A stretch of DNA of 63,193 nucleotides, the filler included, from Nemertoderma westbladi (Eukaryota > Animalia > Xenacoelomorpha), in assembly GCA_032718475.1 (NCBI GenBank). It is 5 parts of 5 records of this genome, joined end to end, with 100 filler letters (N's around TTAATTAATTAA, not from the genome) between each part and the next. Parts side by side here need not be neighbours in the genome. Positions count along the whole stretch, not along the records: positions 1 to 22,443 come from JAUCBJ010008021.1; 4 more parts are not named here. One strand, written 5' to 3'. This document shows, piece after piece, positions 596 through 58,220 of this stretch (the stretch's first letter is position 1; each line of letters begins with the position of its first letter). The notes below the pieces were generated by a model. The model searched no databases. It was not told where the DNA came from and was given only the letters and a program-made list of their open reading frames with translations. A program made the position numbers and the translations under genes.

Positions 596-1929
596 GTTTA
601 GCTATACAGTTGAAGGCTTACTGCTATAGTTACAGTTAAAGCAAGTCTAGTAATTCAGTATGACCACTGGCCTAGTACCGGTAATTTATTGCAGTATATT
701 AGAATACCGGTATGCACTTATAATATATATAAGTATTGTAAACTAGGTTTGTCACAGAGTAGCGGTATATAAATTTAGCACAGATATATATAAATATATA
801 ATAGGCCTATCTTGAATACCGGTATACAGCTTACACTTATAGTATATATAAGTATAATTATGAACTAGAATTAATTACAGAGTACCGGTATGATTTCAGC
901 TCAAATTTATAGAAATAAATATAATAAGCCTATGGTAAGTACCGGTATGTCAATTATTTTTAGAATAATTGAATTCCTGAATATTTTAGGGTTACCCAGT
1001 TACTTTAACTTACTTTATTACCGTTATTTAAGCAGTAGTCCAACTGATAGTGAGACCTAGTTGTTGTATGGCAGGCCTACTATTTATAAATCGTTTGATT
1101 TGATTTATAATATTTATATACCCGTTTAAATGGGTTTTTTGTCAATATTTGAAATAAATGTTATTATTTCTGGGGGAGTCACTACACAGAAGCTGTGCGC
1201 TCTCAGTGAAGTGCTATTTATTTGACACTAAAACTGATAATTCTAATTTACCTAAGTTACTTAATACTACAAATTACTTACGATTCTGGTGAGATTAATT
1301 CTCTAATTAAACACAACAAAAATATTACGTACGAAATTTTTAGGGTAATTTTACAGGAAGTCTACAAACCAGCCTAACAAAGGGTTAGATTTCTGGTTAT
1401 TACAACGGACAGGGTACTACGGTATTTGAAATAATAAGTAGTAGTAAATATATTGTACTGTCCAGATAGGAAAATACCACCGCCTGACGACCTATAACCG
1501 TATCGCTATAGGTACTACGTTATGTATCACGGATTGTTCCTACCCAGAAGCTAATAGAGCTAACGAATGTGCCTATCAACCACTTTACAACACAAATATA
1601 CTGCCTACACTAATTACTTCGGAAAGCACTGTACACTAAACCCTAAATTAGGTACAAGTACCGGTATAACAAATAATCAGTAGTTAAATATACTTGAACA
1701 GTTAAAAGAACCACGGCATCTGCTGGAGTGACCGAAGCACAAAATCTCCAGTCTTTACCTACGCCGAGCAGCCCTGATGTAGTACCGGGGTTAATTTAAC
1801 TATAACGGTATGTATAACAAGCACAATTACTGTAGGAATAAACTTGGGGACATGAATGTTGCGAATAATCGCATAAACTCTGAATAATAAATATTACGCT
1901 ACCCGTACAGAATACTCAAACAGAATACA

Positions 1930-2450
1930 AACCAAACGCTGGCAGACTACTATCAAGCCTAAACAAACTACAGTATGTGCAGATTCTGAAACTGTTAGTT
2001 AGTATGCGTTCTAACACGGTAGCACGACTTATTCTTTAAGAGGGGATTGACCTTACCGCATATGGCTGCCCCAACTTACTAACGGCACTTTATCAGACCA
2101 ACTCTACACACGCAGCAATCCCTTCAGGCCTAAGAATAGCTAGACAACAATCTAGCCTACAAAATATCTGAGTAATAACTATTACGGTACCTGAACAGAC
2201 CACACAAACAAACACAGGCTAAAACACTGGCAGACTACAATCAAGCCTAAATAAACTACAGTATATGCAGATTCTGAAACTGTTAGTTAGTATGCGTTCT
2301 AACACGGTAGTACGACTTATTCTTTAAGAGGGGATTGACCTTACCGCATATGGCTGCCCCAACTTACTAACGGCACTTGATCAGACAAACTCTACACACG
2401 CCGTAATCTCTCCAAACTCAACACAGTCAGACAGCAGTTCAGCCTACAAT
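1930..2450. repeat. Direct duplication, ~230-bp block, period ~288 bp
   Basis: ctggcagactac.atcaagcctaaa.aaactacagtat.tgcagattctgaaactgttagttagtatgcg... starts at ~1939 and again at ~2227. Confidence 0.9.
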
Positions 2451-4221
2451 TATTTGAACAATCTGAGCAGACTTATACGTCTTCAGCTCAATATTAACTT
2501 ACTAGGAAATAAAACCGACAGAAATAAGTAAGCTCCAAAAGAAACAAGGGGTGTACAGTCCCTAATCTCTTAAACAGCCTACCGGTATACAATAATCAAA
2601 ATCGAATAATACTAAATGTACTTGTACAGCAGTACCGGTACCGGTGATGACAGTTAGGCCTACTGACCTACAGAAGTACCGGTTCAGTTTTACCAGTCAC
2701 TACGGTATTTTGCAACCTTATTGCCTACTGCAATAAGATTATAAACTGTTACTGTTCGCGCTTTTGAAGACCTTTAGCAGTTTAACCTGCCAAAATTTAT
2801 ATGTCTTTTAGTTAATTAAAACACCTTTAACATACGACAATATTTTATGCTAATACACAAAACATTAGCCGAAGTCAGCCCATGCGCGATCATTCACCCG
2901 ATGGATCTACACCCGGGAGGCTGAATTCGGATGCTTAAATTTTATTATTGCAGTGTAAGGTTGCAGCGTAAACTTACTGTATTATTCGACAGATCGTTAA
3001 TAATTAATTCCTGACAGATATTATTGGCTTTCGGGAAATATTAACAGTTCCTTTAGGACATGGCGCTCTATCTATTTAAACAGAACTAAGACTTATACTA
3101 AACGCAACGATACTGCTTATGATTAAAGTATAAAGCGTATTCTTTAGGAAATACTTTGTTACCAATCACAATCATGCACACTATTCTGCCGACCGTCAGT
3201 ATATTTGATCACACATAAAGAGAGCAGTAATTGACTCATGTAGGGTCTGCTAAATAACATTAGATTCAATACACACCACATTAATATAAATCGCAATTGT
3301 TATATATAGCCCGCCTCTCTAACCTGTAGTGTATCAAGAAAATTGGGAAATTTGAGTGATTTATCCGTATTATCCAAAGAGCAATATTTCCATCAACAAA
3401 TAGGTACAATTAATAACTGACGGTAAATAACAGTACAAACAATATGATTAATAGTGAGTTAATTAGATCAGATAAGTCGATTGCGTTAGGTTAGTTTAGT
3501 TAGGTAACAGTTTATACTTTCGATAATTTAAGCAGTTTTATTAGAGTTCTTCCCAAAAAGCCGGTGTTATGGCGAAAATGGGAACACAACAACAGAATCA
3601 TATAAAATCATATGACTACTACCACTATACGAGTATACCAAAAACCCTTATTCCCCGAAGCTCCCATCCAACACAGAGGATGAGCAGTGAGATAGGAAAT
3701 TCAGTTCAGTAGCGCTGGGATAGGTCGAAATCAACACCCACGCAAATTCTATTGGCCGACACGGACAGCAAGGCTTAGGCAACCTCCCTACACTGGTTGG
3801 CCGATTAAACTGAGCCCAGATATCTCCACACAGCACATCAGCCAATAAGCTGGTAGCTTGCACTATTTTAGTTATAAATCCCTTTGAGAGTATTCTAGCG
3901 ACCGGGGGGGAACTGGCCAGCAAAGGCAAACGTATCAGTTATCCCACAAAAGCTTTTACAACAGGATAAGGGGATTATATAGTAGTTACATGTAAATACT
4001 ACAATACCAACTCCTATCCTGGTTTTTACTTGGAATTTGTATAATTTGAGTATTTTCTCTGTGTAGTGTGATAGGCCTAACCAATACTTCAATACTTTAG
4101 TGTTTAGTTGGAGTTATATTACTGTACCGGCTGACCGGTATTAGGTAACGGTGGTGGTGCAATACCATATAGATAGGCATGTAGGCTATCGCTGTATCGC
4201 TATACAAATAATAAAAATATT

Positions 4222-5894
4222 ATGTTTATGGTTCGTAATTATAAGCGCAAGTTGGGCAGTAGACGATATAAAGATTACTCTACCGAAACATTAAACAAAG
4301 CTCTTGATGATGTAAAAAAAGGCGATTCTATTCGAGGGGTATCGAAGACTTATGGAATTTCAATTGGAACACTGTGGAATAAACTTAACGGTCAACATCA
4401 ATCAACAGTTGGTCACCCTGTTGCATTAACAGCTGGAGATGAAAAATGTATTGTGGACGCTATTGGAGTATTAGTGGACTGGAAGAAACCACTGAGTATT
4501 CCCGAAGTTCAAATTTTAGTTCATAACTTTCTTGAGAAGAGGGATATTAAGGTCAAATGTTTTAAACAAAACTACCCAGGTATTGAATGGATTCTCTCCT
4601 TTATGAAACGTAATGGTCTTCGTGCTCGCAATGCAGCGAATATCAAAACAAGCAGGGCTGAAATATCAGCAGAAACCTTAAACAGTTTTTATGATGAACT
4701 ATAGAGAAAGAAATTGAAGATGTTCCTGCAAGCAACATCTGCAACTATGACGAAACAGGCTTTGCAAATGATCCTGGTGAAAAGCGTGTTATATGTCGCC
4801 GAGGTCACAAACGTGTTGAACGATCCATTGACCATTCTAAAGATAATACATATGTTATGTACAGTGGTTGTGCAGATGGCGCAGTAAATCCTGTGATGAT
4901 TGTTTACAAAGCGAAGTTTATGTACGAAAGATGGAAATCTGGTGGTCCCAATGGGGCTTGTTATTCAATGACTGAGTCAGGATGGTTTGACATGATAAGA
5001 TTCGAGGAGTGGTTCGAATGGGTTTATAAACCATCCATAATGAATCTTAATGGGAAAAAGATTCTGATAGGTGACAACTTAGGATCACACTTGTCCATTG
5101 ATGTTGTCCGTGCATGTAAAGAGCTCAATGTTCGATTCATCCCACTACCTGGCAATACAACACATATTCTGCAACCACTTGATGTGGCATGTTTTCGATC
5201 TACCAAGATAGCATGGCGAAATATCCTTTCTAACTGGAGAAAAGAGACACGTACAAAGGGTTCTATTCCAAAGCCTCAAATTCCAGCCCTAATGAAACGA
5301 CTGGCTGATAAACTTAGCGATGCATTCCCATTAAATTTAATAAAGGGATTTGAAGCCACAGGATTATATCCACCGAACAGAGAAAAAGGTCTTTGTCATA
5401 TTCCATCAGCTCCAAGTGATACATCCACAAATGCTATAAATTCTGTAGTATTAGAACTTCTTCAATAACAACACACTTCATCAGCATCAACACGGAAGCA
5501 GCGGGGCAAGAAGGTAACACCAGGAAAGGGAATTGAAGAAGAAGACCTTCTGCCAGCTGCAGGTGATGGAGAGACAGGAAACCAGAAGAAGAGGAGAAAG
5601 GTTGTTACTGACGTTCATGTAGGTGAAACTGATGTTGATAAACCATCAACTTCGGGAGGTCAAAGGGGTGTTCAAATAGCAGATACGCCATCGAATTCAA
5701 CAGGTTCACGTCGTCAGTTGCGGCAACGGATACATAGTGAAGGATGGAGCTGTGGATCATGTGGATGTGATTGGAGCGATTTAGATATCAGTGATATATG
5801 GGTGATGTGTGACCTGTGTGAAACATGGTTTTGTGGAGAGTGTGTCCCACCTGCTTCATATAAAGAAGATGATCCGTTTTTCTGTTGCTCATAA
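4222..5894 (+). mobile_element. pogo/Tigger-family DDE_1 transposase pseudogene (psq HTH, CENP-B HTH, DDD triad, C-terminal PHD finger)
   Basis: N-terminal YSTETLNKALDDVKKG..SIRGVSKTYGISIGTL; catalytic NYDETGF (~4743, after frameshift at ~4704), IGDNLGSH, QPLDVACF; stop at 5466-5468, then in-frame CGSC...WVMCDLCETWFCGEC...FFCCS*. TIRs not identified. Confidence 0.9.
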
Positions 5895-6405
5895 TTGCTA
5901 CTAGTAGTAGTACCAAGTACTCATGTTGTCTTGTATGAAATAGCCTACTATGCAATAATACTATATATATATAATAATATAGCCTACTACTGTATATATA
6001 TATATATATATATCCCTTATATATATAATATACTAGATGTATAACTTTTTTTGTGGTTCTTTGGCTACAAATATACAATATATGTATAATGGCACCCTAT
6101 GCTGCTCGCATTCTATATTGTGTTTAGAAAAACCACTTTCAGTTAAAATTACATTTCCGTGATAATTGGGTTAATGTACTGTACCTAAAAGCGAAATACA
6201 TTACCGTATAATACTGCAGGTATCGATGCCATACAGTATTACTTGTTATATGAAGTACTGTATATAGGTAGGGTGAGTGAGGGAGACTGGAACCCCAAAA
6301 GTTATAATCGCTCTAAAGAACTGATAAATAAATTTTTCAATGCCGTTTTAACTTTTTCACATTACATTTATGTTTGCTATCATTATGTCAGAGTTTGAGA
6401 ACTTC

Positions 6406-7170
6406 AAGGACCCAGAAGTAGTAGATATCCGGCAACTACAGTCACTGACACCGAATTCGCGGATGACATCGCCCTGCTCTCTAATACGCTAGCAGATGCA
6501 CAGCTTCTACTGAATAAAGTGGAGAGGGCTGCTAAGGAGGTTGGATTGCATATAAATGCTACCAACCCTTGATAATAATCAACAAAGGAAGGTCGACGAC
6601 TTCCAGTACCTAGGATCATGGATAGAGAGTAGCAAAAAGGACATAGAAGTTAGGAAAGCAAAGGCTTGGGTAGCTCTATCAAAAATGGATACCATCTGGA
6701 AATCAGATCTCCTCAGGCACCTGAAGACTAAGTTCTTTGGAGCAACAGTGGAAAATGTATTTTTATACGGGGGTGAGACCTGGACACTGACTAAATCACT
6801 TGAACAACGAATTGATGGTTGCTACACAAGACTACTAAGGGCAGTCCTAAACATCAGCTGGAGACAACACATGGCAAATGCCGAGCTTTATGGTACAATA
6901 CCACGCGTATCAACAACCCTCCGTAAACGCAGATTAAGATTCAGTGGGCACTGCTGGCGAAGTAAAGACGAGGTCATACCAGATCTACTTTTCTGGCAAC
7001 CAACTCATGGAAAGCGTAGTCGTGGACGACCGGCCATAACATATATAGATCAACTTTAAAGGGATACTGAACTTGGGAGAAACGAAATTGCGACAACTAT
7101 GGAGAATCGGGAAGCCTGGAAGGATCTCATTTCCATTGTCCGAGATCGCTCGACTTAGTAATAGTAGTAG
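6406..7170 (+). mobile_element. 5'-truncated RTE LINE (family RTE-A), 3' part of RT with small internal deletion
   Basis: Highly similar to the reverse complement of ~30014-30817; FADDIALL, FQYLGSWI, RLRFSGHCWR; ends in (TAG)n-like tail. Confidence 0.93.
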
Positions 7171-8319
7171 GTATTGTACCGTAGTTCTTTCAATCTTAAG
7201 AGAACCAAATAATCAACCAAAATTCAATAAAGTTAATTTGTTCTTAAGTCACTTTTTTTGTCAAAGTCGTTAACAAGTTTGACAAAAAATAACACTTTGT
7301 TGTTAATATAAAAAGTTATGTTGAATTAAATTTCAAAGTAATTTCCATGACATTGATTTTTTATACTAGCTAGTCTTTTCTACTTTTTTATAAATGTTAT
7401 GAACACGTGTTAGCTATCAATTTTGATAAATAATTTTGTTCCAGAACACTTTTTATGTATATGAGTTATTATTACCATAATGAACAAAATCTATAATAAG
7501 TGAAGCGAGATAAAGGAATCATGATTGGGGTGATTTATATTGAGTCAATGCAATAATGAAGATGGTCTGGAGGCGCTACCACCCAGTGGAAAAGTGCTGG
7601 TTATGTGAAGATCATTATATTTACATTATATAGAACTTAAAAGTAATGGATATATTTGTAGATTGGAGGGCGGGGGGGGGGGGGGGGGGGGGTGTTGGCT
7701 GGAGAACCACGTTGATTGACACAATGATTATTCAATAATTATACGAGAGATACTGAAGGCCTACTTGTTTTTTGTTTATTTCTTTTTCCATATATTTAAT
7801 TTTATACTGTATGTCTACCGGCACCTCTTACTGTTTATCACAGTGTATGAAACCAAACAAAACATTGTTGTATAAGTAGAATATATAATATATACAGAGT
7901 ACTGAAGTAGTTAGCTATGTAGAGTTTTTGAACAAACTTCAGATTCTTTCTAAACTTTTGACGGACTACATACGTACCAAGTTTCGTTTAATTTCATCGA
8001 GGAATAACCGAGTTATTAGCGATCAAAAATTTACGACGACGACGACAGACGACGACGACAGACAACTCGCCAATGGCACCCATATGCTAAGGCTTCGCTC
8101 AGTTCGTGGCTCGCCCCACATAACAACTACGTTGGTCGATAATGTTACAATTTCTCCTAGCACTACAGTAGTATATAGTAATCAGAATGAATAATTTTAC
8201 GAACAAATAAATTGAGTGAGAGAAAATAAAGCCACAGACACTTTGCAACAAGTGTATACTGTACTGTTGGTACATTTTAGCACTGGGAAATTACTCCAGA
8301 GGAAACTTTTCATTTTTAT

Positions 8320-11220
8320 AAAAAAAATAATATTTTTGGACCTCATGAATATGCAAAAGGTCAAAAAATATATATTATCGGTAAAACTACTACGTTGGTA
8401 TTGCAACCATCTGTATACTGGTAAGCTCTCAAGTAATTATCCAGTAATCGAAGCCATTTGAATACCGCACCTACAAAGATGATATAGATAAAAATGCAGC
8501 CCCATTAATATTCAATAAATGATTAATTTATGAACGGTGCAGCCATTTTACTTCTTTTACACTGCATTATAGAGGCCAAATGATTTATTTAACATTGCAG
8601 CAATTTGTAAGTTAAATTGTATAGATTGGCTATGAATTTGCAGCCAAAAGACAACTTCTTCATAAACGCTAGGTACAGGAAATATAACTTAGATATTGTA
8701 CCGTGTAGTTCATTGAATCAGTAAATTCTATAAAGTTTTTTTTTACATATTGTAAATTAATAGGAGGGACATTGTTTCTGAAGTGAAATAGTAAGCTGAG
8801 TTAAAATCTGTTGCCACAATTTTTCAAGAGTTTCCCGCACTCAAGAATCACTATACACATTAATGACAAATTCACCATAAACATTGGCAAATCACTGGTG
8901 ATTCCTATAGGCCTACACTAACAACCACAGTACTGTATGTTAGGCGCTAAAGTTACTATTTCTCCCAGCCCTAGTACAGTAATCAGTATAGCGAAATGAC
9001 TCCATAGGAATCTTTTCTGTTTTAAAAAATGTAATATTTTTGGACCTCATGAGTATGCAAAAGGTCAAAAAATATATATTATCGGTAAAACTACTACGTT
9101 GGTATTGCAACCATCTGTATACTGGTAAGCTCTCAAGTAATTATCCAGTAATCGAAGCCATTTGTATACCGCACCTACAAAGATGATATAGATAAAAATG
9201 CAGCCACATTAATATTCAATAAATGATTAATTTATGAACGGTGCAGCCAATTTACTTATTTTACACTGCATTGTAGAGGCCAAGTGATTTATTTAAGATT
9301 GCAGCAATTAGTATGTTAAATTGTATAGAATTGCCTAGGAATTTGCAGCCAAAAGAAAACTTCATCAGAAACGACGCTAGGTACAGGAAATATAACTTAG
9401 ATATTGTACCGTAGTTCTTTGAAACAGTGAAATCTATAAAGTTTTTTTACATGTTGTAAATTAATAGGAGGGAAATTGTTTCTGAAGTGAAATACGGATA
9501 GTTCTAAATTAGGAAAACACTAGTAAAACGGTAAAACACTAGGAAAACATAAGAAAAGTACTGTAAAACACCCGGAAAACAGTGGAAATATTGATCAGCA
9601 GGAAATTTAACACATGTACTTCTCTGAATTGACAATCCTAAATGTACTCCTCGCATAGCACCCCTTAAGTAATCACCGTAAAACATAGGGAAAACACTAT
9701 AAAAACACTATAAACCTTCCGGAAAACAGTGAAAAAATTGATCAGCATTAAATTTTACCTATATGCTGCAAAAAAATAAATTGAAAGAGTCTAATACTGC
9801 CCAGAAAGCTTGTTGCCAGGCAACCAAAGAACTGTAACCAATCAGCATACGGTGTAGTATCAGTACAGCAGTACTATCGATCCTTGTTTTACCGGTCAGT
9901 TGGTAGAGGCGCAAAGTACCAGTATCGCTGTATTCAGGTAGGCCTATTACCTGATTACAGATTACAGTATTAGTGCTGTAGTGTATTCCAGTATTCAGAT
10001 ATTGCAGTATTGTAAGGGTTAGTTAAAGCTGTAAATATTTCTATATTTAGTAGCTGAGTTAGACCGGTAAGCATTACAGTATTAAGACAGCCTGGCAGCC
10101 TGGTTACAGATATAGTGCCATAGCCATGGGACATTACAGCATTACATTACATTACAGCATTACACTACTGCACTACAGCACTATTACTGTAATCTGTAAT
10201 CAGGTAATAGGCCTACCAGAATACAGCAATACTGGTACTTTGCGCCTCTACCCCTCTACCAACTGACCGGTAAAACAAGGATAGTACTGCTGTACTGATA
10301 CTGCACCGTATGCTGATTGGTTACAGTTCTTTGGGTGCCTGGCAACAAGCTTCCTGGGCAGTATTAGACTCTTTCAATTTATTTTTTTGCAGCATATAGG
10401 TAAAATTTAATGCTGATAAATTTTTTCACTGTTTTCCGGAAGGTTTATAGTGTTTTTATAGTGTTTTCCCTATGTTTTACGGTGATTACTTAAGGGGTGC
10501 TATGCGAGGAGTACATTTAGGATTGTCAATTCAGAGAAGTACATGTGTTTTACAGTACTCTTCCTATGTTTTCCTATTGTTTTACTGTTTTACTAGTGTT
10601 TTCCTAATTTAGAATCATCCGTGAAATACAGAAGTAAGCTGAGTTCAAATATGTCTTCACAATTTTTCTGAAGTTTCCCCGCACTCAAGAATCAGTACAT
10701 TAATGACAAAATCACCATGAACATTGGCTAATCAATCACTGATGCTCCTTATACACTAACACCACAGTATGTTGGGAGCTACAGTTACTATGAACAATGA
10801 AGATATTGAAAATGTGCAGCCAATTTACTTTTCACTAAATTATAAATTTAATGAACGTTGCAGCCATTTTACTTCTTATACAATGTATAATATAATAATA
10901 TATAATAATAATATACATGGCATTGTATGGTCAGTAATAGGCCAACTCGAATATTCAAAATTGCAGCTATTTGTATGTTAATAGTATAAAGCATGGCTCA
11001 TAAATTTGCAGCAAAATGACACTTCGTTAAAAATCTAGGTACAGCAAGATACAGTAGTATTGTAGATACATACTATTCATAGGCTTACAATAAAGTTAAA
11101 GTTTATCTTCAATATTGTCAAATATAGGAGGTAATACAGTAGAAGTATGGATATTATGATGTGAAATACTAAGCTGAGTCTAAATATGTTGTCAGCATTC
11201 TTATAAGGTTCCCGTACTAA
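8320..11220. repeat. Three diverging copies of a ~0.6-0.7 kb unit rich in TGCAGCCA; copy 2 interrupted by the foldback element
   Basis: 8330.. and 9030.. are near-identical (tttttggacctcatga.tatgcaaaaggtcaaaaaatatatattatcgg...); third diverged copy ~10800-11220; motif continues to ~11960. Confidence 0.85.
9496..10620. mobile_element. Non-autonomous Mutator/MULE-type foldback element with long TIRs and 9-bp TSD
   Basis: GTGAAATAC at 9487-9495 and 10621-10629; ends GGATAGTTCTAAATTAGGAAAACAC / GTGTTTTCCTAATTTAGAATCATCC; inverted arms extend ~470 bp; paralogous empty site at ~8783 (gtgaaatagtaagctgag). Confidence 0.9.
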
Positions 11221-12206
11221 CACTGATTAAAAATAAAAATCGAAATTAAATCACCATTACAAGAAAAACCCCATAATAAAATCTTACATTGGGCGAAGGT
11301 GTGCCTCTACATAGATTATTGATTGTTAGGCAGAGCGATCAACATTGGCAAACAATCAATATTCTTTAAAACGTTAAAATGGACATCGGAAAATAGATGA
11401 GGAAATTCCCAAGAAGCAAAAATTTCAGGTCGCTGGTGTACTGTACTATGTTATTATTATCGTTTTTGACTGACAGAAATAATGACAGTCCCTCAATCAT
11501 TATTATAATTAACATCGGAAATGATAACCCGACCAGGAAAACCCAGATATAAATAATCTTAGTTAGGACTTACAATATGGATACACAACACATCTACTGT
11601 AGGCCCCTCCTCCAGTATTCATATCTTGGTTCTCTCATAACAGTAATACCTAATGCAGCACATACATTAGTTCAAGATTTTATGCAGCCATTGTTGTGAA
11701 AATAAACGGCAGCCAATAAGCCATTATTTATACAAGAATATCTATATAATTCAGCAAAATATCTATATAATTCACCAAAATGTATATATTGAGACAATAA
11801 TTGACCCAAAAATTTAAATTGCAGCCACTGTAGTAACCAGGCTTTTTGCAGCCAAAAGAATGCGGATGTTTTAGAAAGACCATATGGCTACATTGCAGCC
11901 AAAATACAACCTGCCGCAGCCACGGTGTCACTTTGTATATATCATGATGCAACCAATAAGCCATTATTCATATAATCCATTGACACCACATGCTGCATTG
12001 TACATCTATATATATATATATATATATATAGATATATATATCGGTATATAATTTACAGTAAAAAATCTCCACCACCAAACAACAACAATAAATTTCACAC
12101 TCTCTAATTATATTTTACATCAAAAACCCACCACCAAACAATAATAAATTATTAACCAGTTTGTTGAATATAGTATAATATATATGAAATTTAAACGGAG
12201 AACACA

Positions 12207-12661
12207 TTAATGTACTGTACATTTACCAGTGTAGAAGCAGCAAACAACAACAATATTATTTATTCTGACTTTACAGTTATTGAATATTTCGGGGTCGTAT
12301 GAAATTTCTAGTTTAACATTATCAAATATAACATAAAACCCGATATTGTTTATAAGTAACCTATAGATTACGGTGTCGATACTAAAAATATAAGTACACA
12401 AATTGATAGATTTAAAAATCAATTTAATGTTTGTTTTTTGAATATATGCTTTTTCACTTTATTAAAATTATATTTTCTACCGAGAATTGTTATTCGTCCA
12501 TTTGTAAACATTAATATGGTTGCACCAAATACCTTATATATAAACTGATTAGGTTTGAGTACAATTTTACCTGTCAATTGATTTTTTAATTCTTTTAAAT
12601 TAAGTCCATAAATGATCTGCTTACAACTTATATTTTTATTTACTATTTGATAATTCATCAT
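12207..12661 (-). pseudogene. TATA-binding protein (TBP)-like gene, frameshifted at ~12420, overlapping the end of pPolB
   Basis: Repeat 1 YQIVN..LNLKEL..ATILMFTNGRITILG (TBP: LQNIV..LDLKTI..TTALIFSSGKMVCTG); repeat 2 SYDPEIF...VVVCCFYTGKCTVH (TBP: SYEPELF...VLLIFVSGKVVLTG); order and spacing fit the two-repeat TBP core. Confidence 0.75.
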
Positions 12662-15600
12662 CAACATCATCACCTTTTGGTTCTTCATAAATTGGTATAT
12701 TTGATATTTTTATAGGTTTTTTGAGGTTTGTTTTATAGTGCCCCCAAGGAAGTGATTGATTTTTATTAACCCAATAAAGTTTATCATAAAAGCTACTGAG
12801 TGCAAATTTATTTTGCTTTAAGGTATAAATACGATGTAATTTAGATTGAAATCTGTGTATGTTTTTTTTTATTTCTTCATTTGAGTTATATGCTTTTAAA
12901 TATTCTTCATGTGTAATATTCGTTTCCACAACAGCTCTTGTAATACCTTTTGCTCTACGAATATTTTTGTTATTCCATTCCAAAATTGAATATAATTTTG
13001 GTCTTAAAAATACAGCTTGTTTAATTTCACGTGAGGCTAGTTCATCTTTACAGTAATAAAGTCTCGATTTATTTTTATTACTATAAAGCGGGTGATCCTT
13101 AGGGTAATTGGATGTATCTAAAATATTATTTTTAATTAATGCTTTTAAAAAATTATTCTGCGATGTATTATAGTAACAACCTATTAATAAGTCTATATCT
13201 GATGCAGCAATTTCAATACGGCAGTTTAATTCTTTCTCAATAGGTAGCAATTTATCGTAGTACAGCTCATACATATCCAGTTTAGCCAAATCCAACACTG
13301 CGCTACCAATAAATATAGGCTTATCGAGAGTTACAGAGTCTTTCACTAATAAATGTCCCGATAATGTATTATTGTATATTATAAATTGTTCATGATTAAT
13401 ACGATTCACCAATTGGTCACATTTATCATTGCTATTTGCGATACGAAAGTTACATCGATCCCGTATCTTTTCTATTGACTTACCGAATAAAGAGTTATTA
13501 AGCAGCTTCGCGACAGCCGTTTCAATGTAACTTTTTGCTAGTCGCCTTTGATTAATATTAAAATCTATGTAATTTTTAAATACAAATTCTTGTTGAAAAG
13601 AATATAATTTATGTAGTTTAGTAACAATTAATCCATGTTTTATATAAAATTTTAACAGTTTCAAATGTAAATGATAAAATTCTTTATCAAATTGCGTCAG
13701 CAAGAGTTTTGGTGTAGGCATCTTATATTTACTGGAGGTACCTCTTTGTATCGATAAGTTATTAAATTGTTCCCTCATATAAGGTGAAAGCATTGATTCA
13801 TTTATACTTAAATGCTCTGGGGCTAACGGTAATTGTAATGTTTGATCGTGAATAGCTTTGGGGTAATTTAAATCACATATTAAAAAATATCCAGTAGATC
13901 CGTCATTGTCTAAATCTACCAAGTACTCGATTAGTTTTTCTGGAATTGCATTCTCTAAATGTTTAATACTTACTTCTTTGAATTGTGAGGTGGGTAGTTT
14001 TTTACTTAAATTCCCAGAATATAAAGAGTTGAAATCAATATTAAAAATATGGCATTCTTCCTTAGTAGAATCATATGTACTTGTTTCGGGTATATTTGAT
14101 TCTATATAATGCTTTCGACAAAATGAAACACCACCCCTAATTGATTTTTCAAAATCTCTATATGTCTGATAATCCTTTATTAATTCTATTTTACATTTAT
14201 TATATTTTAGTTCGCAATCATTGGTAAATGACGCAATACTACAGTAAAAAACCACTTCTAAATCGTAATTTTGTTTACAAACATTCCTAAAATTCTCAAA
14301 TATATCAGCAAGCAAACAAACATCGAGTTTTAAATAGGCCAAAAGATAATCTTTGAGATTCACTCAGTCGAATTCTACCCATGATAATCCCACAAACCTA
14401 TAATCTTCAATTGTGCATGTTTTTTGACTTAAGTTACTAAAAAAATTATTTATAGATGGTAAACCAGTATCATTAAATTTATTTATATCTGTCAAGTACT
14501 CGTATGGAAATACTCCTTTCCGATTAATTGTTGAGTTATTCAAGTTTGGATAAAAATATTTCATTTCTTGTAGAGTAATAGGTAAAATTGAGCTTATATC
14601 ATGACTCGCTACATCCTTTGTTTAACACTCAACTAAATTACTTAAAGAAAAGCTTAAAAATTGATATGTGTCTAAGACACGTAACTCAATTTTTTTAGAA
14701 GTGTTTTTAATTGGGATAAATCCACTCAGTGAAATATATCGTTCTGTATTTCTCGGTATAACCTTTATATCCCAATCCGTGTATTTCTTATCTCTAAATC
14801 CGGTTTGTAATATACAATGTATATCATAATTATTGGAATTGTGCCCGCAAAGTACATACAGGTATCGTTTCAATGATGAACTTCGGTTACAACTATTACA
14901 GGCTGCCGCAATATATTTACCTGTAATATGTGAATGATGTCTGTTTTTCCCTACATTATTATTTAAAGTAACATTACAATAGAAACAAAATTTTGCCTGT
15001 TCAAAATTTACAAAATCAATATTAGTAAATAACATAGTTTTATGAGTGTATATTTCTGACCAACAACATAATTCAGTTAAATCAGTATATAATGAATCTA
15101 AGAAATCTTGAATACAATTATTATTATTTGACTTTACGAATGTTTTCAAATGACATTTTGGAGGATCAATTAATTCACTATTGGGAACAATTAAATAACT
15201 CACAGCACACGGTATATGCTCCTGTATAAATTGATTATTAACTGAAGGTTGTAAGATACATTCTATATCAAAGTAGGTGACAAACAATAGGGATAAGGTT
15301 CTATCTAAATTTGTAAAACTAATGTGTGTTCTTTTTTTATTAGGTAGTTTCTCTCGTTGACTTCTTCCTTGGTAGCAGACGAGACGGTGTCGATGAAGAA
15401 CTTCCGCTCGAAAAAAATGTCCCAAACACCTTTCACAATATTTCCTATTGTGGATATGAAGAGCTCTCGTATTCAGCAATCGATTCAAGTTAGTTATGCA
15501 AACATAATGATTCAGTTTAGGTACATTGTTATTTTTTACTACAAGTAATATATTTAATAACTCTTTATCAGGTGTAATTTTACTAAACGGTGGTTGTCTT

Positions 15601-16697
15601 AATATAGATACGGGGGTGCGTTTGTTGTCGTTATTCCAACATAGTAAATTAATTATATATTTAAAATTTTGTTTTTCAAAAAGTTTAATCATTAACTGCC
15701 ACTCTGTTGGATAATCATTTTTCCCGTTGTCAAAAATGAAATGACTCATATAATTTTTGTACGACGAAGTATGGTTTTTGTTGTTTTTCACTTTGCTACC
15801 AAATTTTGCGGTTATAATAGCCCATTTGAAACAGTCATTATCAACCGTTTGTATATTTATTGTACATTTTTTAGCTGATAGAGCCTTAGGTAATTCCATA
15901 TATCCATGCCCCTTATATAGTAACGACCTACACTTAGATTCAGCTAATTTAATTTCAACCCTTAATAAAAATTTAACGCGCCACCCTGAGCCACATGTGT
16001 TAAAGATGGCTATTTTTTGTAATATATTTTCCACCACATACTCAAACCATATGTCAAAACTTTGTGATGAATCTACAGTATTATTAGCACCACCGGAAGA
16101 ATTAAAATAAAAGGTTTCCAATTGCTCGCCTTCTGAAAAATGTGATCTGTACATTAATACATTTAGACCTAACCACAGTCTAAGAACATTCATTTCTTTC
16201 AATCTATCTAATATTAACTGAAGAATATTACCTCGAATTTGCGTTAATGCTGTTTCTACATCGGGATTTCTTCATCTAGAAGTTGGGAGGTCGTGGACAT
16301 AAATTTCAAGACGATTATCGTGAGCTTCTTGTTCCCGCGTAAAAATTGTTGCGCATGTACCAAGAGCCACCCTTAAGTTTTTTCTAGATAATATATTTTT
16401 ATGTTGTGGAGATTTATGCTTTCTTGTGTAATAACATTTCAAGTGACAGTCGTGTCGTAAATAATTCTCATATGTATACTCTTTATTACAGGTAGAACAA
16501 GTCAATTGATAGGTACGGAACTCCATTTCTTTACAACCTGTAGTTGATTCATGTCATTTACAAATTTCGCTGCATGAAGTCACAACATGACACTTAAAAC
16601 AAGAATAACCTTCAAAATGTGACCGTAGGTAGCGTAAATAATTATGTCTAGTTACATTCATATGACAGAATGAACAACATATTGTTATTTTATCCAT
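12636..16697 (-). pseudogene. Protein-primed family B DNA polymerase (Polinton/Maverick type), 1354 codons, four in-frame stops
   Basis: Track ORFs 16272-16526, 14622-16202, 14364-14564 and 12636-14363 plus an upstream ATG at 16697 are all one frame; stops at 16554, 16272, 14622, 14364. Motifs: N-terminal Cys/His fingers, GSGW, DNDCFKWAI, YCERCL, ExoI YFDIEC, endonuclease VII-like RHHSHITGKYIAAACNSCN, ExoII HNSNNYD, RKGVFPYEY, ExoIII YLKLDVCLLADIFENFR, DFNSLY, KLLNNSLFGK, SDIDL (usual DTDS), LRPKLYS, RAKGI. Confidence 0.96.
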
Positions 16698-16884
16698 GTT
16701 AAAGTTTGTTTAGATTAATAATAATAATAAAATATCACCAAAGATTAAAATAAAATGAAATGAAATGTTATTGACTATATCTAAACATTTATATGCTAGC
16801 GAGTGAAATAATTTTAAATCAATCACCAATCACCAATCGCTTATGGGTATTGGAAACCTCAAAGAGTTTAACTTATGATCAGGT

Positions 16885-17949
16885 TTACATGTTAGAATAA
16901 TAATCTGGTTTCCATGGAGAATTAGTAACTGGATCTACTGGAACTAGGTTACCGGCAACTTTCTGTTTCTTTGCAGGTGATGCGTTGGTAAATTTACTTG
17001 ATGATCTTGGCTTCCGAGGTAATATTTCAGGAAAGACCTGTTGCGGTTGAGAGCAACTCTCTTCAACATCCGGATTAGGTGATGGGATCTCTATGAATGC
17101 TTTAGGTTTATCCAAAAGGACAAAACCATCTACATTGGCTTCAGTAAGAGAAACACCATCCATAGCCTCTTTGAGAAAACTAATATGGGTTTTATCCTTC
17201 AAGTAATGCAACTCAATAGAATTTCCACCTGCTCCTTCTTCAGTAGAATTATCGGTGTTGGTGATAATAATTTTTTTATTATTGGTTTTAATCATTTTGA
17301 GACGGTCTGATAATTGAATGATATTTTTATCAAAAAGATGCTTGTCTGTTTCATCGATTTGGGTGTCCCACTCTCGCAACAAAATGGTTAGTTCCTGATT
17401 TGACAAATTGAAACCCGTATAATAGTTAAAACCAACACTATCAGCGTATCTGAGGCTGATTTTCCATAAGCCAACATAGTTGGTTCCTTTAAAAGCTGTT
17501 ACAAATCCAATAAACTCTGGATTTGATAATTCAATGTAGAATTGATCGCTAATAATCTCTAGCGGTGGAGAGAGAAATTGCAATAATTTCCCTCTGTATT
17601 GAATTAGAACTTCAGTAAAAGCTTTGTTGAGAACTTTACATTTGCCTTGTTTCTAAACGTAAACATCACCCGACGTGGGGTTGATAGAAATATTCAAATT
17701 TCCTCGCGCAAAACGAAGAGCAGCATATATCCTACCTGGTATAATTGCTGGTCTGGATTGATGTTGGTTGTTGTTGGTTGTTTCTAGAATGTCTAGCAAA
17801 TAGCGGGTATCTTGATGGGAAAAACAAATTGATTCATTGTCCTCCTGAGATTCCACAATAAAATACTTGCTGTGAACGACGGTACAAGTATATTTATTGT
17901 AAGTAAATTTCCAGCTATTTGTTGCTCCAGTTTTTTGCGTTAAGGCCAT
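16885..17949 (-). pseudogene. ~354-codon ORF with one internal TAG; contains a PC4/Sub1-like ssDNA-binding domain
   Basis: ORFs 17653-17949 and 16885-17583 are in one frame separated only by TAG at 17653-17655; FVTAFKGTNYVGLWK...GFNLSNQELTILLREWDTQIDE resembles PC4 VSVRDFKGKVLIDIRE...[21 protein letters not shown]; basic PAKKQK near the C-terminus. Confidence 0.6.
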
Positions 17950-18043
17950 AATAATAATAAATACGAAAAATATTACAAGTGATAAATTTTAAACCGTATT
18001 GCTGTAATAAATTGACACCATAGTTCTCACTCTAAAGTTGTGA

Positions 18044-18202
18044 TGGTCGGAAAACAACACCTGAGAAAAATGATACTGATTCCGACATTGGGTATCAATC
18101 AAAAAACGAAAATCGAGCAAGACACGTAGCTCGATTTTCGTTTTTTGATCGATACCCAATGTCGGAATCAGTATCATTTTATGAGGTGTTGTTTTCCGAC
18201 CA
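18044..18202. repeat. Near-perfect inverted repeat, ~75-bp arms, 10-nt loop
   Basis: tggtcggaaaacaacacct..aaaatgatactgattccgacattgggtatc.atcaaaaaacgaaaatcgagc [aagacacgta] gctcgattttcgttttttgat.gatacccaatgtcggaatcagtatcatttt..aggtgttgttttccgacca; weaker outer arms ~18004-18042 / 18250-18300. Confidence 0.95.
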
Positions 18203-18893
18203 ACGAATATACAACGAGTAAGATAATGATGAAATTATTAAGGAAATAACACAATTTCAGAGTGAGAACAAAAAAATTAGATATGGTATCAATATATTAC
18301 CATGAAGATTACAAGTGATGAATTTTAATAAAAACATTCAGTTATATATAATTTCTGAATATGTGATGTGGCATAATCAACGTTGAAGAGATGGGATGTG
18401 GCATAATCAACGACGAATAAGAAAAGAGATGGGATGCAATATGGATGAATGGTTAGTTGGTTGCGTGGATAGGAAATACGTGAACGAATATGAATCATTG
18501 GGTTGTGCGTAATAATAATCAATAATTATAATAAAAACGCGCAGTATAATGTTAGTAGGCTTTCAATATGCCGCAGATGCTGAGGGTTAGGTTAGGTTGA
18601 GTAACTATGGAAATGTGAGAACGTGTACGTGACGCGTGCCGAAATTTCATGTATCATACTGGTTGGTTGGTTGGTTGGTTTGGTGACAGCAGCCGAGTAG
18701 CTCTAGCGGTGGGTAAATCATTGAGTTGGCAATCGATATAATATAATAGCACGGCGTTGCGTGGTATATGCGTGGTGTGCGTAGATGGCCATGTCGTCCG
18801 TGACTGGCTCTATCATCGTTGTCATCATATACAGTATGTGGTAGCAAGGCGAAAAGGGGAGTAACCGGAGGGCTAGGCAAGCAAGCATCACCG

Positions 18894-18958
18894 TTGGTTG
18901 GTTGGTTGGTTGGTTGGTTGGTTGGTTGGTTGGTTGGTTGGTTGGTTGGTTGGTTGGT
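18894..18958. repeat. (TTGG)n microsatellite; shorter run at 18660-18683 and a 2x ~90-bp duplication at ~19008-19186 lie nearby
   Basis: Directly visible. Confidence 0.95.
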
Positions 18959-19310
18959 AGGTAACAGCAGTCGAGTAGCGATGGGTTGGGTATGTGGGGG
19001 CTAGCCATGCATCGCGAGGTTAGGCTACGCGAAGATGAATATCGATGATTGGTTGATGCAACGACGCGAATCAATACTGATGGTTGGTAACAGCAGTCGA
19101 GTAAGGCGTGCATCGCTAGGTTAGGCTACGCGTAGATGAATATCGATGATTGGTTGATGGCAACGACGCGAATCAATACTGATGGTGGCAGATGGTCATT
19201 AAACACCGGAATTTGGCACCGGAATTTGGCATTTTGAATAGTCCTCCGAGATATCTCCCATAGCCCAAGCTAGGGAGGACTATGGTGAGGAACCCTCTTC
19301 CTCTACTACT

Positions 19311-21750
19311 TACCCTATCGCCTACACTATCTCTCCCAGTATGGCCTATAGTATGTGCAGTAAGGCTTACAGTATGTCCTGCAGTCTGCCTGTGTCCTTC
19401 CGTATCAAAGTTTAATCTTCTCGAATATTCCGAGAAGTCCTCCCCGCAACTACCATATTCTCGATCGGCAGCTACTTTCCAACGGGAAGTTTCCCTCCGA
19501 TCCCCTCTCCTGTCTTCTTCCTCGTACCAGTACCCTCTCCCGGTGGGTGGTATATTTCGCCAGGTTATGTTTCTCCGGGGCTATGGCAATCTCCCGGAGT
19601 ATGACCCCAACGGCTCTCTTTCTCCACCCAGAAAGGATCGACGGTTTACTGTCCATCCTTTCTCTCTGGTTGCTCGTTGCAACACTCCCTCGTCCCTCCT
19701 CGCTTCTTTTGATTTTAGCGTAATGTCCTCCCTAATGAGATCTCATTTCGACCTCCCGGATGAACTCCACTGTTCTTCTTCCGTCTTCCGAGTGGGCTCA
19801 ACGTTTCCTCATTTGGCCACTTACGGCACCAACGTCCCTCCCTCTGCCCGGTTGGACGGCCCCGTGGATATTCGCAGTCCCCCTACTGTCCTCTGTGGTT
19901 GGGTGCCACGGTTCACTTAACTCACCGTGCGCATTATCTGCCGATGCTCGAGGGGCGTTTGCTGCCCCCCCCCCCTTTCCTCCATTGTTGGATGCCACGG
20001 TTCAATTAACTCACCGTGAGCACTATCTGCCAACACTCGTGGGGTGTTTTCTGCCCCCCCTCTCTTGTCATTAATTGGTTGTGGTGGGGTGCCCGTAGCC
20101 CCCCCACCCATCACCTCTTATTTCGCCCCCATGTCCATGTTACCCTCGAATCGACATGTTAGTTCTATCCTCACTGAGTTTGTTAACCCATGTTCCTCTC
20201 TGCGCAACTGCGTGGCCTTGTAGTCCCTCACTAGGCAAATTGCCTCTTTCCCCTACGTTTATATTAATTGTACCGCCATTAGCCCTGCGCGGTTGATTTG
20301 TTACGTTATTATTTAGGTTATTTTGATTAATTCCGCCGGGGTTATTTATTATATTGTTATCTGGCGTATCTGGATTATTATTTAAATTATTTAAATTATT
20401 TTGTTCACCAATATTTATATTATTATTTAAATTATTTTGTGCACAAATATTAGAATTATTACCGAGTAAAATATTATCTCCTGTAAAGAAAGTTTCGTTA
20501 GTATTAGGGTTATCTATTACGGTACTATTAATATTAAGGTTCTCGTTAAACGTATTGTTATTACCACCCCCGCCCGTCCGGTCACACCAGTCTTGGGTCT
20601 GTCGTCTGGGATCAAGTGTCAAGTAATATCAAGTATCGAGTACCTGTAAGTGGAGTATTAACAAAGGTTTCCATCATCCCTGGTTCCTCATAAATACTCC
20701 CCGAACCAGCCTTGCTCTCTGATAAACCCATTTTTGCCAGTTCTAATTTCATGTCTGTCTTGCCTGATATTGCATGAACCCCCTCAACCGGGTATGCATA
20801 TCATCCCGCATACGTTTACCCGCCCTCTCTCTTTCTCTATCCTCTCTGACACTCTGATCGGCTAATTCTGCCTCACTCGCCTCCCGCACTCTACGCTCAT
20901 TCACCTCTCTAGCCTCCCGCTCTCTGCCCTCGTTCACCTCTCTCGCCTCCCGCTCTTTGCGCTCGTTTTCTTCTCTCGCCTCCCGCTCTTTGCGCTCGTT
21001 TTCCTCTCTCGCCTCCCGCTCTTTGCGCTCGTTTTCCACTCTCGCCTCACGCTCCTTGCGCTCATTCATTTCTCTCTCCTCCCGCTCTCTATAGTTTCTC
21101 GCCACCCTCTCGGCCCTCTCTTTACACTCTCTCGCTGATTCCTTCTCCCTCTCTAGTAACGCGGTCCCCTCATCCAGCTGTCTCTCTAGCTCCTTTTGAT
21201 CCAGCGCCACGATATCTAATTGACACGCCAGATCTATCTTAAACACCCTTCTTGCTTTTGCGGAGGATGTAGTGGACTTTTCGGTTGTGACGGACTCCCG
21301 TTGCCTGCCCGTCCTACTAATTTTCCCGCATTTACTGGGATTCCTACTAACCGACGATACCGAATCTTCGGGGTTAACCTCGGATTCGCTGTCGTGCGGG
21401 TCCGCCCATCCCACTAACTTAATCCCCCTCGCATCTACTAGATTAGGCCCTATGTACACTACAGTGGCCTCCACCACCTCGGATCGCCACAATTCGAACA
21501 GTTCTGAGGCGACCCCCCTCGCCCTCTCACTTGCTAGTTCACCCTGCCCAAATCGGACTAGATAGCGAAAGTGTTTGTTGCACTCATCTAGCCTTTGGTA
21601 CAACTCGGGGATGAAAATCTGAAATTTTGCATGATTTAAACCCCTTGAGTAACGTCCACACTCCGCATCACCCACAGGGCATTCAGACTTCTTCCCGAAT
21701 TAGCTCAGAAACAAGGTGGGCTGAAACCGTAAAGGCCTGTTTTTTAATGA
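19311..21750 (-). mobile_element. BEL/Pao LTR retrotransposon, 5' (gag N-terminal) portion, disrupted
   Basis: EVNPEDSVSSVSR...STTSSAKARR followed by a coiled-coil (REENERKEREA)n is typical of BEL/Pao polyprotein N-termini; then Asn-rich low-complexity sequence with stops; no pol visible. Confidence 0.65.
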
Positions 21751-22443
21751 AATAATATGTCGGTTCCTTAGTAGTTGAAAGTTACTGATTAAACTAATAT
21801 ATAGCAATTTCTAAATAAATATTTATTTTTGATAAATTATATCCAGTTAAATATTGAAGTAATTTTACTCCTACACAATTATTATCAAGTAAAAATTGTC
21901 GATGAATTTAAGTTACTGATAAATAATAGCCAATCATATGAGTAGATTGATAAACGATTTCGAAAAATATGTTACTTACTGATATTTAATATTCTGTTAA
22001 TTCTTGATAAATTAAAGTTTCTTATAAATAAATATAACATACTGATAAATAATACGCACTTAATCATTGAAGTATATAAATTATTCATTTGTAATTTCAA
22101 TGTATTTCTCGATAAATTGAAGGTACTGAATAATATAATGAATGTGAAATAATATAGTGAAAGATAAATATGTTTGTGAAGAAATAAGTAATATTCTCTC
22201 TGCTACATACTTTCCTTTCTGATAAATAGTTATTTAGTCTGATATAAATATTATAACTCGGTAATATATTACTGATATCAATGTTGAAGGATATTTATGT
22301 TTCTTAAGGGGGGGGGGGGGGGGGGGGGGGGGGTACACCATTTTCGGACAACTCTTCGATTTATCCCTCTCAGCGTTTCAAAATTGTTTTGTTTTGGCTA
22401 AAATTTGGCATATAGGTGCCTAAGATGTTATTCTACATAAGTA

Positions 22444-41250: not shown

Positions 41251-41799
41251 AAAACGGAATATGGAGTGCTGGTTATGGGTGTTCCAAATGTCGGTAAATC
41301 ATCACTGATCAACGCACTGCGTTCCACGTTCGTGCGGGAACGCAAAGGCCGGTGCCAGCGGGTAGGAACGCAACCGGGCGTAACGCGTTCCATAGAGACT
41401 GGCGCACTTATAAGCGCGGAACCCCGGATACTCGCGATAGACACCCCGGGTGTGCTGCACACGAAGGATCTAGACCCAGAAATGTCCTACCGACTAACAG
41501 CCTGCGGAATCATTGCAGATAGAGCTCTCGGAGAAATCGCGGTCGCAGACTATCTTCTCTATAATCTTAACAAATCCGAGGTTTTCGAGTACGTCCAGCT
41601 GTTCAACCTAACGGAGCCAACCGATAATGTTGTGACTCTTTTGGACCATATCGCATTCCAGCGCGGATTGGTTCGATTAGTTCAGGATAAGAAGTCCAAA
41701 GGTTGGGGTCGAACCGGGGCCTTGGATTTCGCAGCTGCTCACATGCTGGCCGAGTTTAGGTCTGGGGCTTTAGGGAGGATTATTTTTGATGTGTTCTAG
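41251..41799 (+). CDS. MTG1: Mitochondrial ribosome-associated GTPase 1 (RbgA/YlqF family), terminal exon
   Basis: Acceptor ttttcccttag; GVPNVGKSSLINALR (G1), PGVTR (G2), DTPG (G3), ADYLLYNLNK, FRSGALGRIIFD; upstream exons not identified. Confidence 0.92.
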   Translation, partial: KTEYGVLVMGVPNVGKSSLINALRSTFVRERKGRCQRVGTQPGVTRSIETGALISAEPRILAIDTPGVLHTKDLDPEMSYRLTACGIIADRALGEIAVADYLLYNLNKSEVFEYVQLFNLTEPTDNVVTLLDHIAFQRGLVRLVQDKKSKGWGRTGALDFAAAHMLAEFRSGALGRIIFDVF

Positions 41800-56840: not shown

Positions 56841-56873
56841 ACATCTACAAAATATAACACGTGACCTGCAATA

Positions 56874-58220
56874 ATGTGCCATTACATGAAATTTATGGGA
56901 CCCAGTCTTAGAGATAACAAAACAAGATTAATGATATCAAATTTGAATCCCAATTTGTGGTATCTGAATGATTTAACCAATGACAAAATTAAGTTTAAGA
57001 GAAGATTCACAGTTGCTAATACGAGAGAATTAGACAAGTTACAAACTATTATAGACATTAAAGACTGCTTAATTAAAGAAACCATTTTGAAACTAAAGCG
57101 GAAGTGGGGAAGGGATCGTATATATCAGAGGTACGATCGCACTAAGGATTACGAAAAGCTAGAAGGACAAAATATATATACCGGAAAAAGCACAACAAAA
57201 GAATGGATGGATAACACGGGAGCAACTAGACTCAAAAATAAGATAAATAATGTTGGAGTTTACCAGATGTTCAAGACAATAGCTCAAACACAAGACAGCG
57301 AGTTGTCTTTGGAAACATTACAAGTAATTAATAGAGATATGTCAAGATCACCTTTTCAGTTGTTTGATCCACAATTATTCCCAAGAAGTAGATTATTTAT
57401 ATACACTACAGATGGAAACGGGGAATCTGAGACACCAGGCAGAGCACTTCGTTTTATATTCCAAGTTCTAACTGCTTATGCCGCATATGATAAAGTTACA
57501 AGTTACACTCAAGGAATGGATCAGCTGATTGGTTGGTTCTATTTCCACCTTGGAGGTGGTGAAGATGATGGAGTAAATTGTGAGGAGGATGCATTTTGGT
57601 ACCTCAATTCGCTAATGGCAGGTAAGAGGCATCACATGCGCGGATTTTATGACACGGATAAAATGGAATTGACGAGGATGAGCTACCGAGACCTAATTTG
57701 GTGGATCCTAGAGAATGAAATTCCTGATCTATATGAGCACTTATGTAGCATTCACAATGGCAGATGTTATATATCATCTGCTATTATCGATTCTTGGGTA
57801 TTAAGATATTATATAACAGAACTTCCATATGACTTGGTTAGGGAATTTTGGGATCAGTACACATTTTATGGAGACGAAATGTTAGTTGCAATGATGTATT
57901 GCATCTTTCGTATGCACAAGGAAGAATTAAAAAAGAAGCATAACATGAATGGTATAAACAAATACTTTAAGCGTTTACATGATGATTTTCGTTTTCATGT
58001 AACCAACACAATGATGCAGCTTTTTAAATGCATGCGGAAGTTAAGTCATCGCCATCATACAGCATCCGGCATCTCTCGCGCTTTCATATCGTATTGTTGC
58101 ATTGGTGAGCGTGAAATGTCTGTAGACAGAACCAAATTCCATGAATTATTTTACAAAGTATTCGGTCAAGAAAAATATCAGATGTACAAAGCATACGGTA
58201 GTTCGACTTTTTACTACTAG
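56874..58220 (+). CDS. Intronless TBC-domain Rab GTPase-activating protein (USP6NL-like, divergent)
   Basis: INRDMSR (IxxDxxR arginine finger), VLTAYAAYD..SYTQGM (YxQ glutamine finger), EEDAFWYL, PDLYEHL, LPYDLVREFWD; 448 aa open; AATAAA at 58245-58250. Confidence 0.88.
   Translation: MCHYMKFMGPSLRDNKTRLMISNLNPNLWYLNDLTNDKIKFKRRFTVANTRELDKLQTIIDIKDCLIKETILKLKRKWGRDRIYQRYDRTKDYEKLEGQNIYTGKSTTKEWMDNTGATRLKNKINNVGVYQMFKTIAQTQDSELSLETLQVINRDMSRSPFQLFDPQLFPRSRLFIYTTDGNGESETPGRALRFIFQVLTAYAAYDKVTSYTQGMDQLIGWFYFHLGGGEDDGVNCEEDAFWYLNSLMAGKRHHMRGFYDTDKMELTRMSYRDLIWWILENEIPDLYEHLCSIHNGRCYISSAIIDSWVLRYYITELPYDLVREFWDQYTFYGDEMLVAMMYCIFRMHKEELKKKHNMNGINKYFKRLHDDFRFHVTNTMMQLFKCMRKLSHRHHTASGISRAFISYCCIGEREMSVDRTKFHELFYKVFGQEKYQMYKAYGSSTFYY

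Follow-up and report, generated by a model that had tools for sequence, protein, structure and literature searches.

A decayed Polinton-derived element with a protein-primed DNA polymerase and a TBP-like gene in Nemertoderma westbladi

Background

Polintons, also called Mavericks (adintoviruses), are presented in 10.1101/2023.08.22.554363 as elements of 13-25 kb that carry integrase, protease, ATPase and capsid genes and are bounded by terminal inverted repeats of 100-1500 bp and target duplications of 5-8 bp. Here we analyze a 63,193-nt stretch of the Nemertoderma westbladi assembly GCA_032718475.1 (the window), in which a repeated unit of ~7.3 kb (12056..19310, minus strand) contains a protein-primed DNA polymerase B (pPolB), a TBP-like gene and an orphan open reading frame (ORF), ORF-A. 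The pPolB is of the Polinton type and is accompanied by the TBP-like gene, with no virion or integrase genes found at the locus, as an earlier note on this sequence (the original prediction) had proposed. The unit is a Polinton-derived variant and not a full member of the group, because integrase genes, capsid genes and paired ends were all sought in this copy and not found. We give about an even chance to the possibility that this decayed copy descends from a larger Polinton, of which it keeps the early (replication) arm, the other arm having been lost at a (TA)n tract.

The unit shares with Polintons a pPolB with an OTU-type Cys/His pair and full exonuclease and polymerase motifs, a terminus upstream of pPolB that resembles AGTAGT, subterminal DNA rich in repeats, and multiple copies that include deletion forms; it differs from them in its size of 7.3 kb, its single terminus and the absence of integrase, protease, ATPase and capsid genes at the locus. 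An HNH nuclease domain within pPolB is also found in the pPolB2 Polintons of nematodes and oomycetes, which, according to 10.1101/2023.08.22.554363, keep all core Polinton genes; the relationship is drawn by domain only because the named pPolB2 sequences were outside our tree. TBP-like genes of MELD viruses appear in the legend of Fig. 5 of PMC8502044, and the same source records integrase-less MELD viruses from Hydra and a spider. Linear plasmids (cytoplasmic and mitochondrial) and bidnaviruses are described in 10.1101/2024.03.18.585575 as pPolB-based but devoid of a double-jelly-roll capsid and an rve integrase, and the same text describes protein-primed replication in which an OTU protease cleaves the terminal protein. 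Unlike these replicons, the element studied here resides in nuclear DNA, among long interspersed nuclear elements (LINEs) and DNA transposons. The window is nuclear DNA of the animal type and contains a DDE transposase, a gag-like ORF, fold-back repeats and the reverse transcriptases of LINEs. Neither a split Polinton nor this three-gene layout was found in literature titles and the openings of abstracts, with Repbase and supplementary gene maps lying outside that search.

A three-gene cassette with a Polinton-type polymerase

ORF-A, pPolB and the TBP-like gene are co-oriented on the minus strand within ~5.7 kb, as originally predicted. The pPolB gene (12636..16697, minus strand) is a single frame, read from 16697 to 12636, of 1353 codons plus a stop, in agreement with the ~1354 codons first proposed, and is interrupted by four in-frame stops (codons 48, 142, 692 and 778). 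For residues 143-1330, 42 homologs with 25-35% identity were identified among 5,552 candidates, many of them annotated as PF03175 or PF02945; no Pfam polymerase match was found for the window copy itself, and an exact-peptide scan of viral contigs with its C-terminus recovered no relative. The alignment contains a Cys/His-rich N-terminus, an OTU-type Cys and His, Exo I-III, Pol A-C, KxY and TxxG, where the OTU, Exo and Pol names are labels that we assigned, partly after two bioRxiv papers. An HNH (endonuclease VII-like) insert is present as well, and both aspartates of motif C are kept while nearby positions depart from the family.

Relatives were collected as 165 pPolB loci, 27 viral, 79 from metagenomes (where the best 80 were retained out of 523 matching stretches) and 59 from genome bins of prokaryotes; individual loci are referred to below by L numbers. 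In a FastTree phylogeny (midpoint root, 847 columns, 162 of 171 sequences left after gappy rows were dropped), the window sequence falls within a clade of 20 with support of 1.0, on a long branch and at a nearest distance of 2.2. Motifs, homologs and the position in the tree all identify a Polinton-type pPolB. CCAAT- and TATA-like boxes can be read upstream of both pPolB and ORF-A and might represent host-type promoters for early genes.

The TBP-like gene (12207..12658, minus strand) overlaps the end of pPolB with its start, at 12658, and is broken into two pieces by a frameshift near 12430; the position of its 3' end is uncertain. The pieces match Pfam PF00352 weakly (E 0.004 and 0.011), under the curated cut-off. 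A search seeded with the TBP of locus L030 together with the window pieces yielded 77 short TBP-like proteins among 317 candidates, and a hidden Markov model (HMM; A5) of this family, built from 42 of the 77 and representing a length of ~167 amino acids, matched the two pieces colinearly (positions 13-59, E 3e-5; positions 93-142, E 2e-4), the next best segment of the window scoring E 0.67. The P-x-Q, F..G and Y-x-P-E-x-F motifs of the family are present, as are both TBP repeats. The TBP-like ORF of the original prediction was thus recovered as two frame-shifted pieces, and its assignment, by sequence comparison, to the short mobile-element TBP family stands. An exact-peptide scan of viral contigs with the L030 TBP found no relative.

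Genes of this TBP family occur in two of the 165 loci, L139 and L030; the three-gene order of the window was seen in none of the 165. L139 is a full Polinton of 12.7 kb with pPolB, a TBP (E 2e-10), protease, rve integrase and A32 ATPase identified by Pfam, and a capsid identified by HMM. Hence, the TBP is not unique to compact elements, and the suggestion that it marks a new type of replicon is not supported. Both loci encode a short TBP of the same family as the window gene but differ in its location: in L139, it closes the structural cassette, away from pPolB, and in L030, it lies 5.5 kb downstream, whereas the window TBP overlaps the pPolB end and is far more divergent. L030 also encodes a phospholipase A2 and a KilA-N protein; no core virion gene or rve was found in the 15 of its 23 kb that were searched. 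The 59 loci from prokaryote genome bins (L109-L167), which include L139, are Polinton-type pPolB contigs and probably represent eukaryotic or viral contamination of these bins.

ORF-A (16885..17949, minus strand; 354 codons, with one internal stop near 17655) is an orphan. Searches of Pfam, PHROG, PDB and sequence databases detected no homolog, and there were 0 matches among 847 candidates. The only match of its C-terminal 255 amino acids among 1.84 billion representatives, a bacterial metalloprotease, was judged spurious. Single-sequence structural models, of low confidence (pLDDT 35 and 39), display modules of four strands plus a helix and match nothing in PDB or BFVD by Foldseek at E 0.001. 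Pur-alpha, the fold of which is PC4-like, appeared at rank 11 in the comparison with an ORF-A model (Z 4.6, root-mean-square deviation 3.2, 61 aligned residues), the other rows being unrelated proteins, and neither PF02229 nor the PC4 proteins of Polintons matched the ORF-A sequence. The PC4-like label originally given to this ORF was accordingly not confirmed, for want of a homolog in any of these databases, and a role as a single-stranded DNA-binding (PC4-like) protein is a guess. PC4 genes are present in two relatives, L078 and L017, the latter a complete 12.3-kb element with terminal repeats in which the Pfam match is weak.

The predicted absence of virion and integrase genes held up in HMM searches of the window, which speak to this copy only. 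Three rve HMMs together with 836 locus ORFs gave nothing for an integrase in the window, nine HMMs for capsid, packaging ATPase and protease had no match there, and none of the 12 HMMs run on the related loci matched the window.

A multi-copy family and the edges of its unit

Contig depth was taken from five public sequencing runs of four studies (X1-X5), each of which contains part of the unit; no RNA dataset was listed among them. Neither summed nor contig depth is a copy number, and repeats, the (TA)n tract among them, were skipped when the contigs were placed. Contig depth in the element is ~20-50-fold higher than in its left flank. Summed depth over 12129-19280 reached 37,000-265,000 in X1, 6,900-53,000 in X3, 19-460 in X4 and 0-8 in X5, compared with 1,600-1,800 in X1 and 240-250 in X3 over 10788-11681; X4 and X5 did not cover this flank, which proves nothing. 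The placed contigs range from >99% to <90% alike, and joints at 15488-16977, 17565-18223, 14698-15424 and other positions reveal shortened forms of the family; in X4, the joint 15488-16977 has a depth of 206x, deeper than the intact contigs of that run. Given that none of the placed contigs has the window letter at many positions, the window copy is a decayed outlier, with five stops and one frameshift across its three genes. The 20-50-fold depth, the many variants and the internal-deletion forms together identify it as a decayed copy of a multi-copy family, and the expected recurrence of the unit was thereby borne out in the public runs.

The left edge is a depth jump at ~12056, beside the (TA)n tract at 11996..12048. 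In X3, single contigs of 90 and 210 nt have depths of 11,383x and 10,833x inside, compared with 205-216x outside; the corresponding values are 7,918x and 372-438x in X2, and at least 26,000-34,000x (summed) and 913-1,139x in X1. Just inside this edge lies a duplicated 3' motif (12056..12200), with plus-strand AATAAA at 12087 and 12143 and minus-strand GU-rich tracts, a possible two-way poly(A) region, for which the evidence is weak because the DNA is AT-rich. Because the repeated unit starts at ~12056, the ~4 kb of ORF-poor DNA originally noted downstream of the genes, which is indeed gene-free, lies outside the common unit and consists mostly of other repeats. The left flank at 10788-11681 has an X1/X3 depth ratio of ~7, like the cassette and unlike the right flank; it may consist of single-copy DNA or represent the left side of the element in a minor variant form. 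The non-coding flank at 10622-11995 is nearly identical across X1-X3, with a cassette-like depth ratio; it contains 7 of the 17 window copies of GCAGCCA and is related to a 704-bp duplication at 8294-9494.

At the right, the X1/X3 ratio is 4.7-8.5 over the cassette, 2.3 in the bin 19281-19727 and 0.9-1.7 beyond, so that the edge falls in this bin, to which it is resolved and which holds AGTAGTAG. This candidate terminus (19303..19310, minus strand) lies upstream of pPolB and corresponds to the AGTAGT end of the original prediction. The motif alone is weak because 14 copies of this 8-mer occur in the window, and it gains weight from the change of the depth ratio in the same bin. Four of 167 loci (L011, L028, L042 and L131) start with (A)GTAGTA at the corresponding side of pPolB. 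An 18-nt terminus pattern matched 26 viral loci, of which 0 encode relatives of any of the three gene products or match the DNA at E 1e-3. Overlapping short contigs inflate the summed depths, so that these are no guide to paired terminal repeats at this end. Beyond the terminus, 19311-21700 is a multi-copy GC-rich sequence that abuts the right end of the element, with a depth ratio between runs unlike that of the cassette; it contains a gag-like ORF (20749-21699, minus strand) that encodes an E/R-rich coiled coil and has no Pfam match.

Between ORF-A and the terminus, the predicted long hairpin is present as a near-perfect ~160-nt palindrome (18044..18202) with 52-bp arms at 98%, ~100-250 nt upstream of ORF-A (z -20.9, equaled in 0 of 200 shuffles); it is deleted in the family form with the joint 17565-18223. 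The subterminal non-coding region (18600..19300) contains (GGTT)n, a pair of 78-bp direct repeats and a 13-bp tandem, differs among copies and is where several joints fall. Rfam gave 0 matches in 11000-22400.

Completeness of the window copy, in contrast, was not borne out: it has one terminus, no target duplication and a cut beside the (TA)n tract. No inverted partner of at least 11 nt was found for the left edge, nor any partner of the 19310 end within 8000-12700, and the six bases outside 19310 differ from those outside 12056, a comparison that is meaningful only if 12056 is a natural end. The resemblance of the left edge, TA|CAGT, to a pogo/mariner end was considered and rejected, no matching right end having been found.

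Origin of the compact unit

The reading that we favor, at about even probability, is that the window copy is a truncated early arm, with the virion and integrase genes of the family encoded in cis on the arm lost at the (TA)n tract. The multi-copy gag-like sequence that begins at 19311 does not resume on the left, and the copy has a single terminus with neither an inverted partner nor a target duplication. A TBP is present in the full Polinton L139 and a PC4 gene in the complete element L017, and the two plus-strand AATAAA signals at the left edge would, weakly, suit a lost convergent gene. The depth of internal-deletion forms (15488-16977 and 17565-18223) suggests an integrase acting on the family, and a late-gene activator combined with amplified deletion forms suggests virion and integrase genes for it. 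The relatives cut both ways and lean toward full Polintons. At least one of rve, ATPase, capsid and protease was detected in 56 of the 62 pPolB loci of at least 8 kb, a count that is biased because the 27 loci from the virus collection were likely selected for hallmarks. Among the three loci of at least 8 kb in the window clade, L038 has a capsid gene converging on pPolB on the same contig, a layout shared by 10 of 29 capsid-bearing loci. Several points weigh against a truncated arm. The two other loci of this size in the clade, L030 (15 of 23 kb searched) and L045 (8.4 kb), yielded none of rve, ATPase, capsid and protease, and in no related locus was a TBP seen immediately behind pPolB. Because the pPolB branch is long, neighbors are poor predictors of the gene content of the window, and, as noted, the count of 56 is biased. 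Most of the family shares the left edge, where depth climbs from ~200-1,100 to 10,000-94,000 across a single 41-nt bin, and the listed loose ends included no long continuation of high depth past it, the tract being skipped. It is improbable that an assembly misjoin at the (TA)n tract created the left junction, an error that would make the compactness an artefact of a real element and would likewise place the missing genes in cis. Run contigs break at 11996-12048 and no displayed contig bridges the tract, but a missing bridge proves nothing because repeats were skipped in contig placement; moreover, X1-X3 each contain the flank as well as the element, and an X2 contig extends from 12129 to 12052 plus 10 further letters.

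The sharp and common left edge, the compact, overlapping gene set and the failure to find virion genes in the window also fit a possible but less likely alternative, that the unit is either a satellite dependent on a helper or, in a Polinton split into two segments, the half with pPolB and TBP. Such a unit might replicate itself, supply TBP in trans and borrow integrase and capsid from a same-ended partner, tentatively the carrier of the virion and integrase genes. The 7.3 kb could then be the complete coding content of one segment, with a polymerase, an orphan protein for replication and a TBP of its own, the last of which might activate capsid and integrase genes on a separate segment; the retention of a TBP is more readily understood if late genes are present somewhere. 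In the searched DNA of L030 and L045, from the same clade, core virion genes are lacking, and L045, which gave the best tblastn match of the first 106 loci, has its pPolB (1379-6460, 1694 amino acids) alone in an 8.4-kb contig, between tandem repeats. However, no terminal repeat pair was found in L045, no second terminus or target duplication in the window copy, and no partner element in the 63-kb window, and L038 joins pPolB and capsid on one contig. We regard as unlikely an autonomous, capsid-less, linear plasmid-like replicon, high-copy and extrachromosomal, of which the window locus would be a fossil insertion. In favor of it, much of the family is very uniform, as X3 contigs of 90 and 210 nt reach ~11,000x against 205-216x in the flank, and depth varies widely among runs with the same organism label (X1 and X3 versus X4); cytoplasmic linear plasmids derive from Polintons via loss of the virion module, according to 10.1101/2024.03.18.585575. 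Against this, thousands of contigs are just 85-95% alike and deletion forms occur, as in a genomic repeat family; uniformity is overstated because contig assembly drops rare variants, and depth is not a copy number. Plasmids of the pGKL type encode an RNA polymerase and a capping gene, both lacking in the unit. Least probable is a segment of a bidnavirus-like virus, with pPolB on a segment of 6-7 kb: the size is similar and bidnavirus PolB has an OTU domain (PMC8502044), but Pfam found no parvovirus-like NS1 or capsid among the three ORFs, and the placed tree neighbors are all Polinton-type, HNH-bearing pPolBs, bidnavirus sequences being outside the tree. Overall, the distinct replicon of the original prediction is possible and is not the reading that we favor.

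Under the truncated-arm reading, the intact element would be excised as linear DNA and copied from its ends by pPolB, as expected from the family, the N-terminal part of pPolB serving as a primer, which the OTU-type protease would release. ORF-A may contribute as a putative single-stranded DNA-binding protein. The TBP-like protein is predicted to switch on late genes via host RNA polymerase II, and the integrase, ATPase, protease and capsid genes would lie on the missing arm, probably in convergent orientation.

Other features of the window

N-gaps at 22444, 40568, 46145 and 55416, with an identical TTAATTAATTAA central spacer, are probably contig joins, and the piece that contains the element is probably 1-22443. 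In that piece, an HTH-psq and DDE_1 transposase remnant (4177-5990) precedes a (TA)n tract at 5993, which is the sole other long TA tract of the window besides 11996-12048, and a 1.1-kb fold-back (inverted-repeat) element occupies 9494-10622; X1 and X3 contigs skip the fold-back (joint 9486-10621). Elsewhere, an uninterrupted 451-codon ORF at 56865-58220 (plus strand) encodes a RabGAP-TBC domain (Pfam E 1.4e-21) and, intronless there, is possibly a retrocopy or mobile cargo. A fragment of a 50S ribosome-binding-type GTPase (PF01926) at 41251-41799 (plus strand) is probably a host exon. Three copies, 97% identical, of a coding-like segment lie at 47109, 53393 and 54724; the scanned copy has no Pfam match.

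Implications

If truncated, the window copy is a fossil of an ordinary kind, and the Polinton lineage from which it comes is new, divergent and abundant; the copy is of use since this lineage has its own TBP and an orphan gene, and the abundance of the lineage seems strongly sample-dependent. If, instead, the unit is a segment or a satellite, Polintons would be capable of becoming multipartite, with an element-encoded TBP that acts in trans, and the timing of late-gene expression in such viruses would become testable within one genome.

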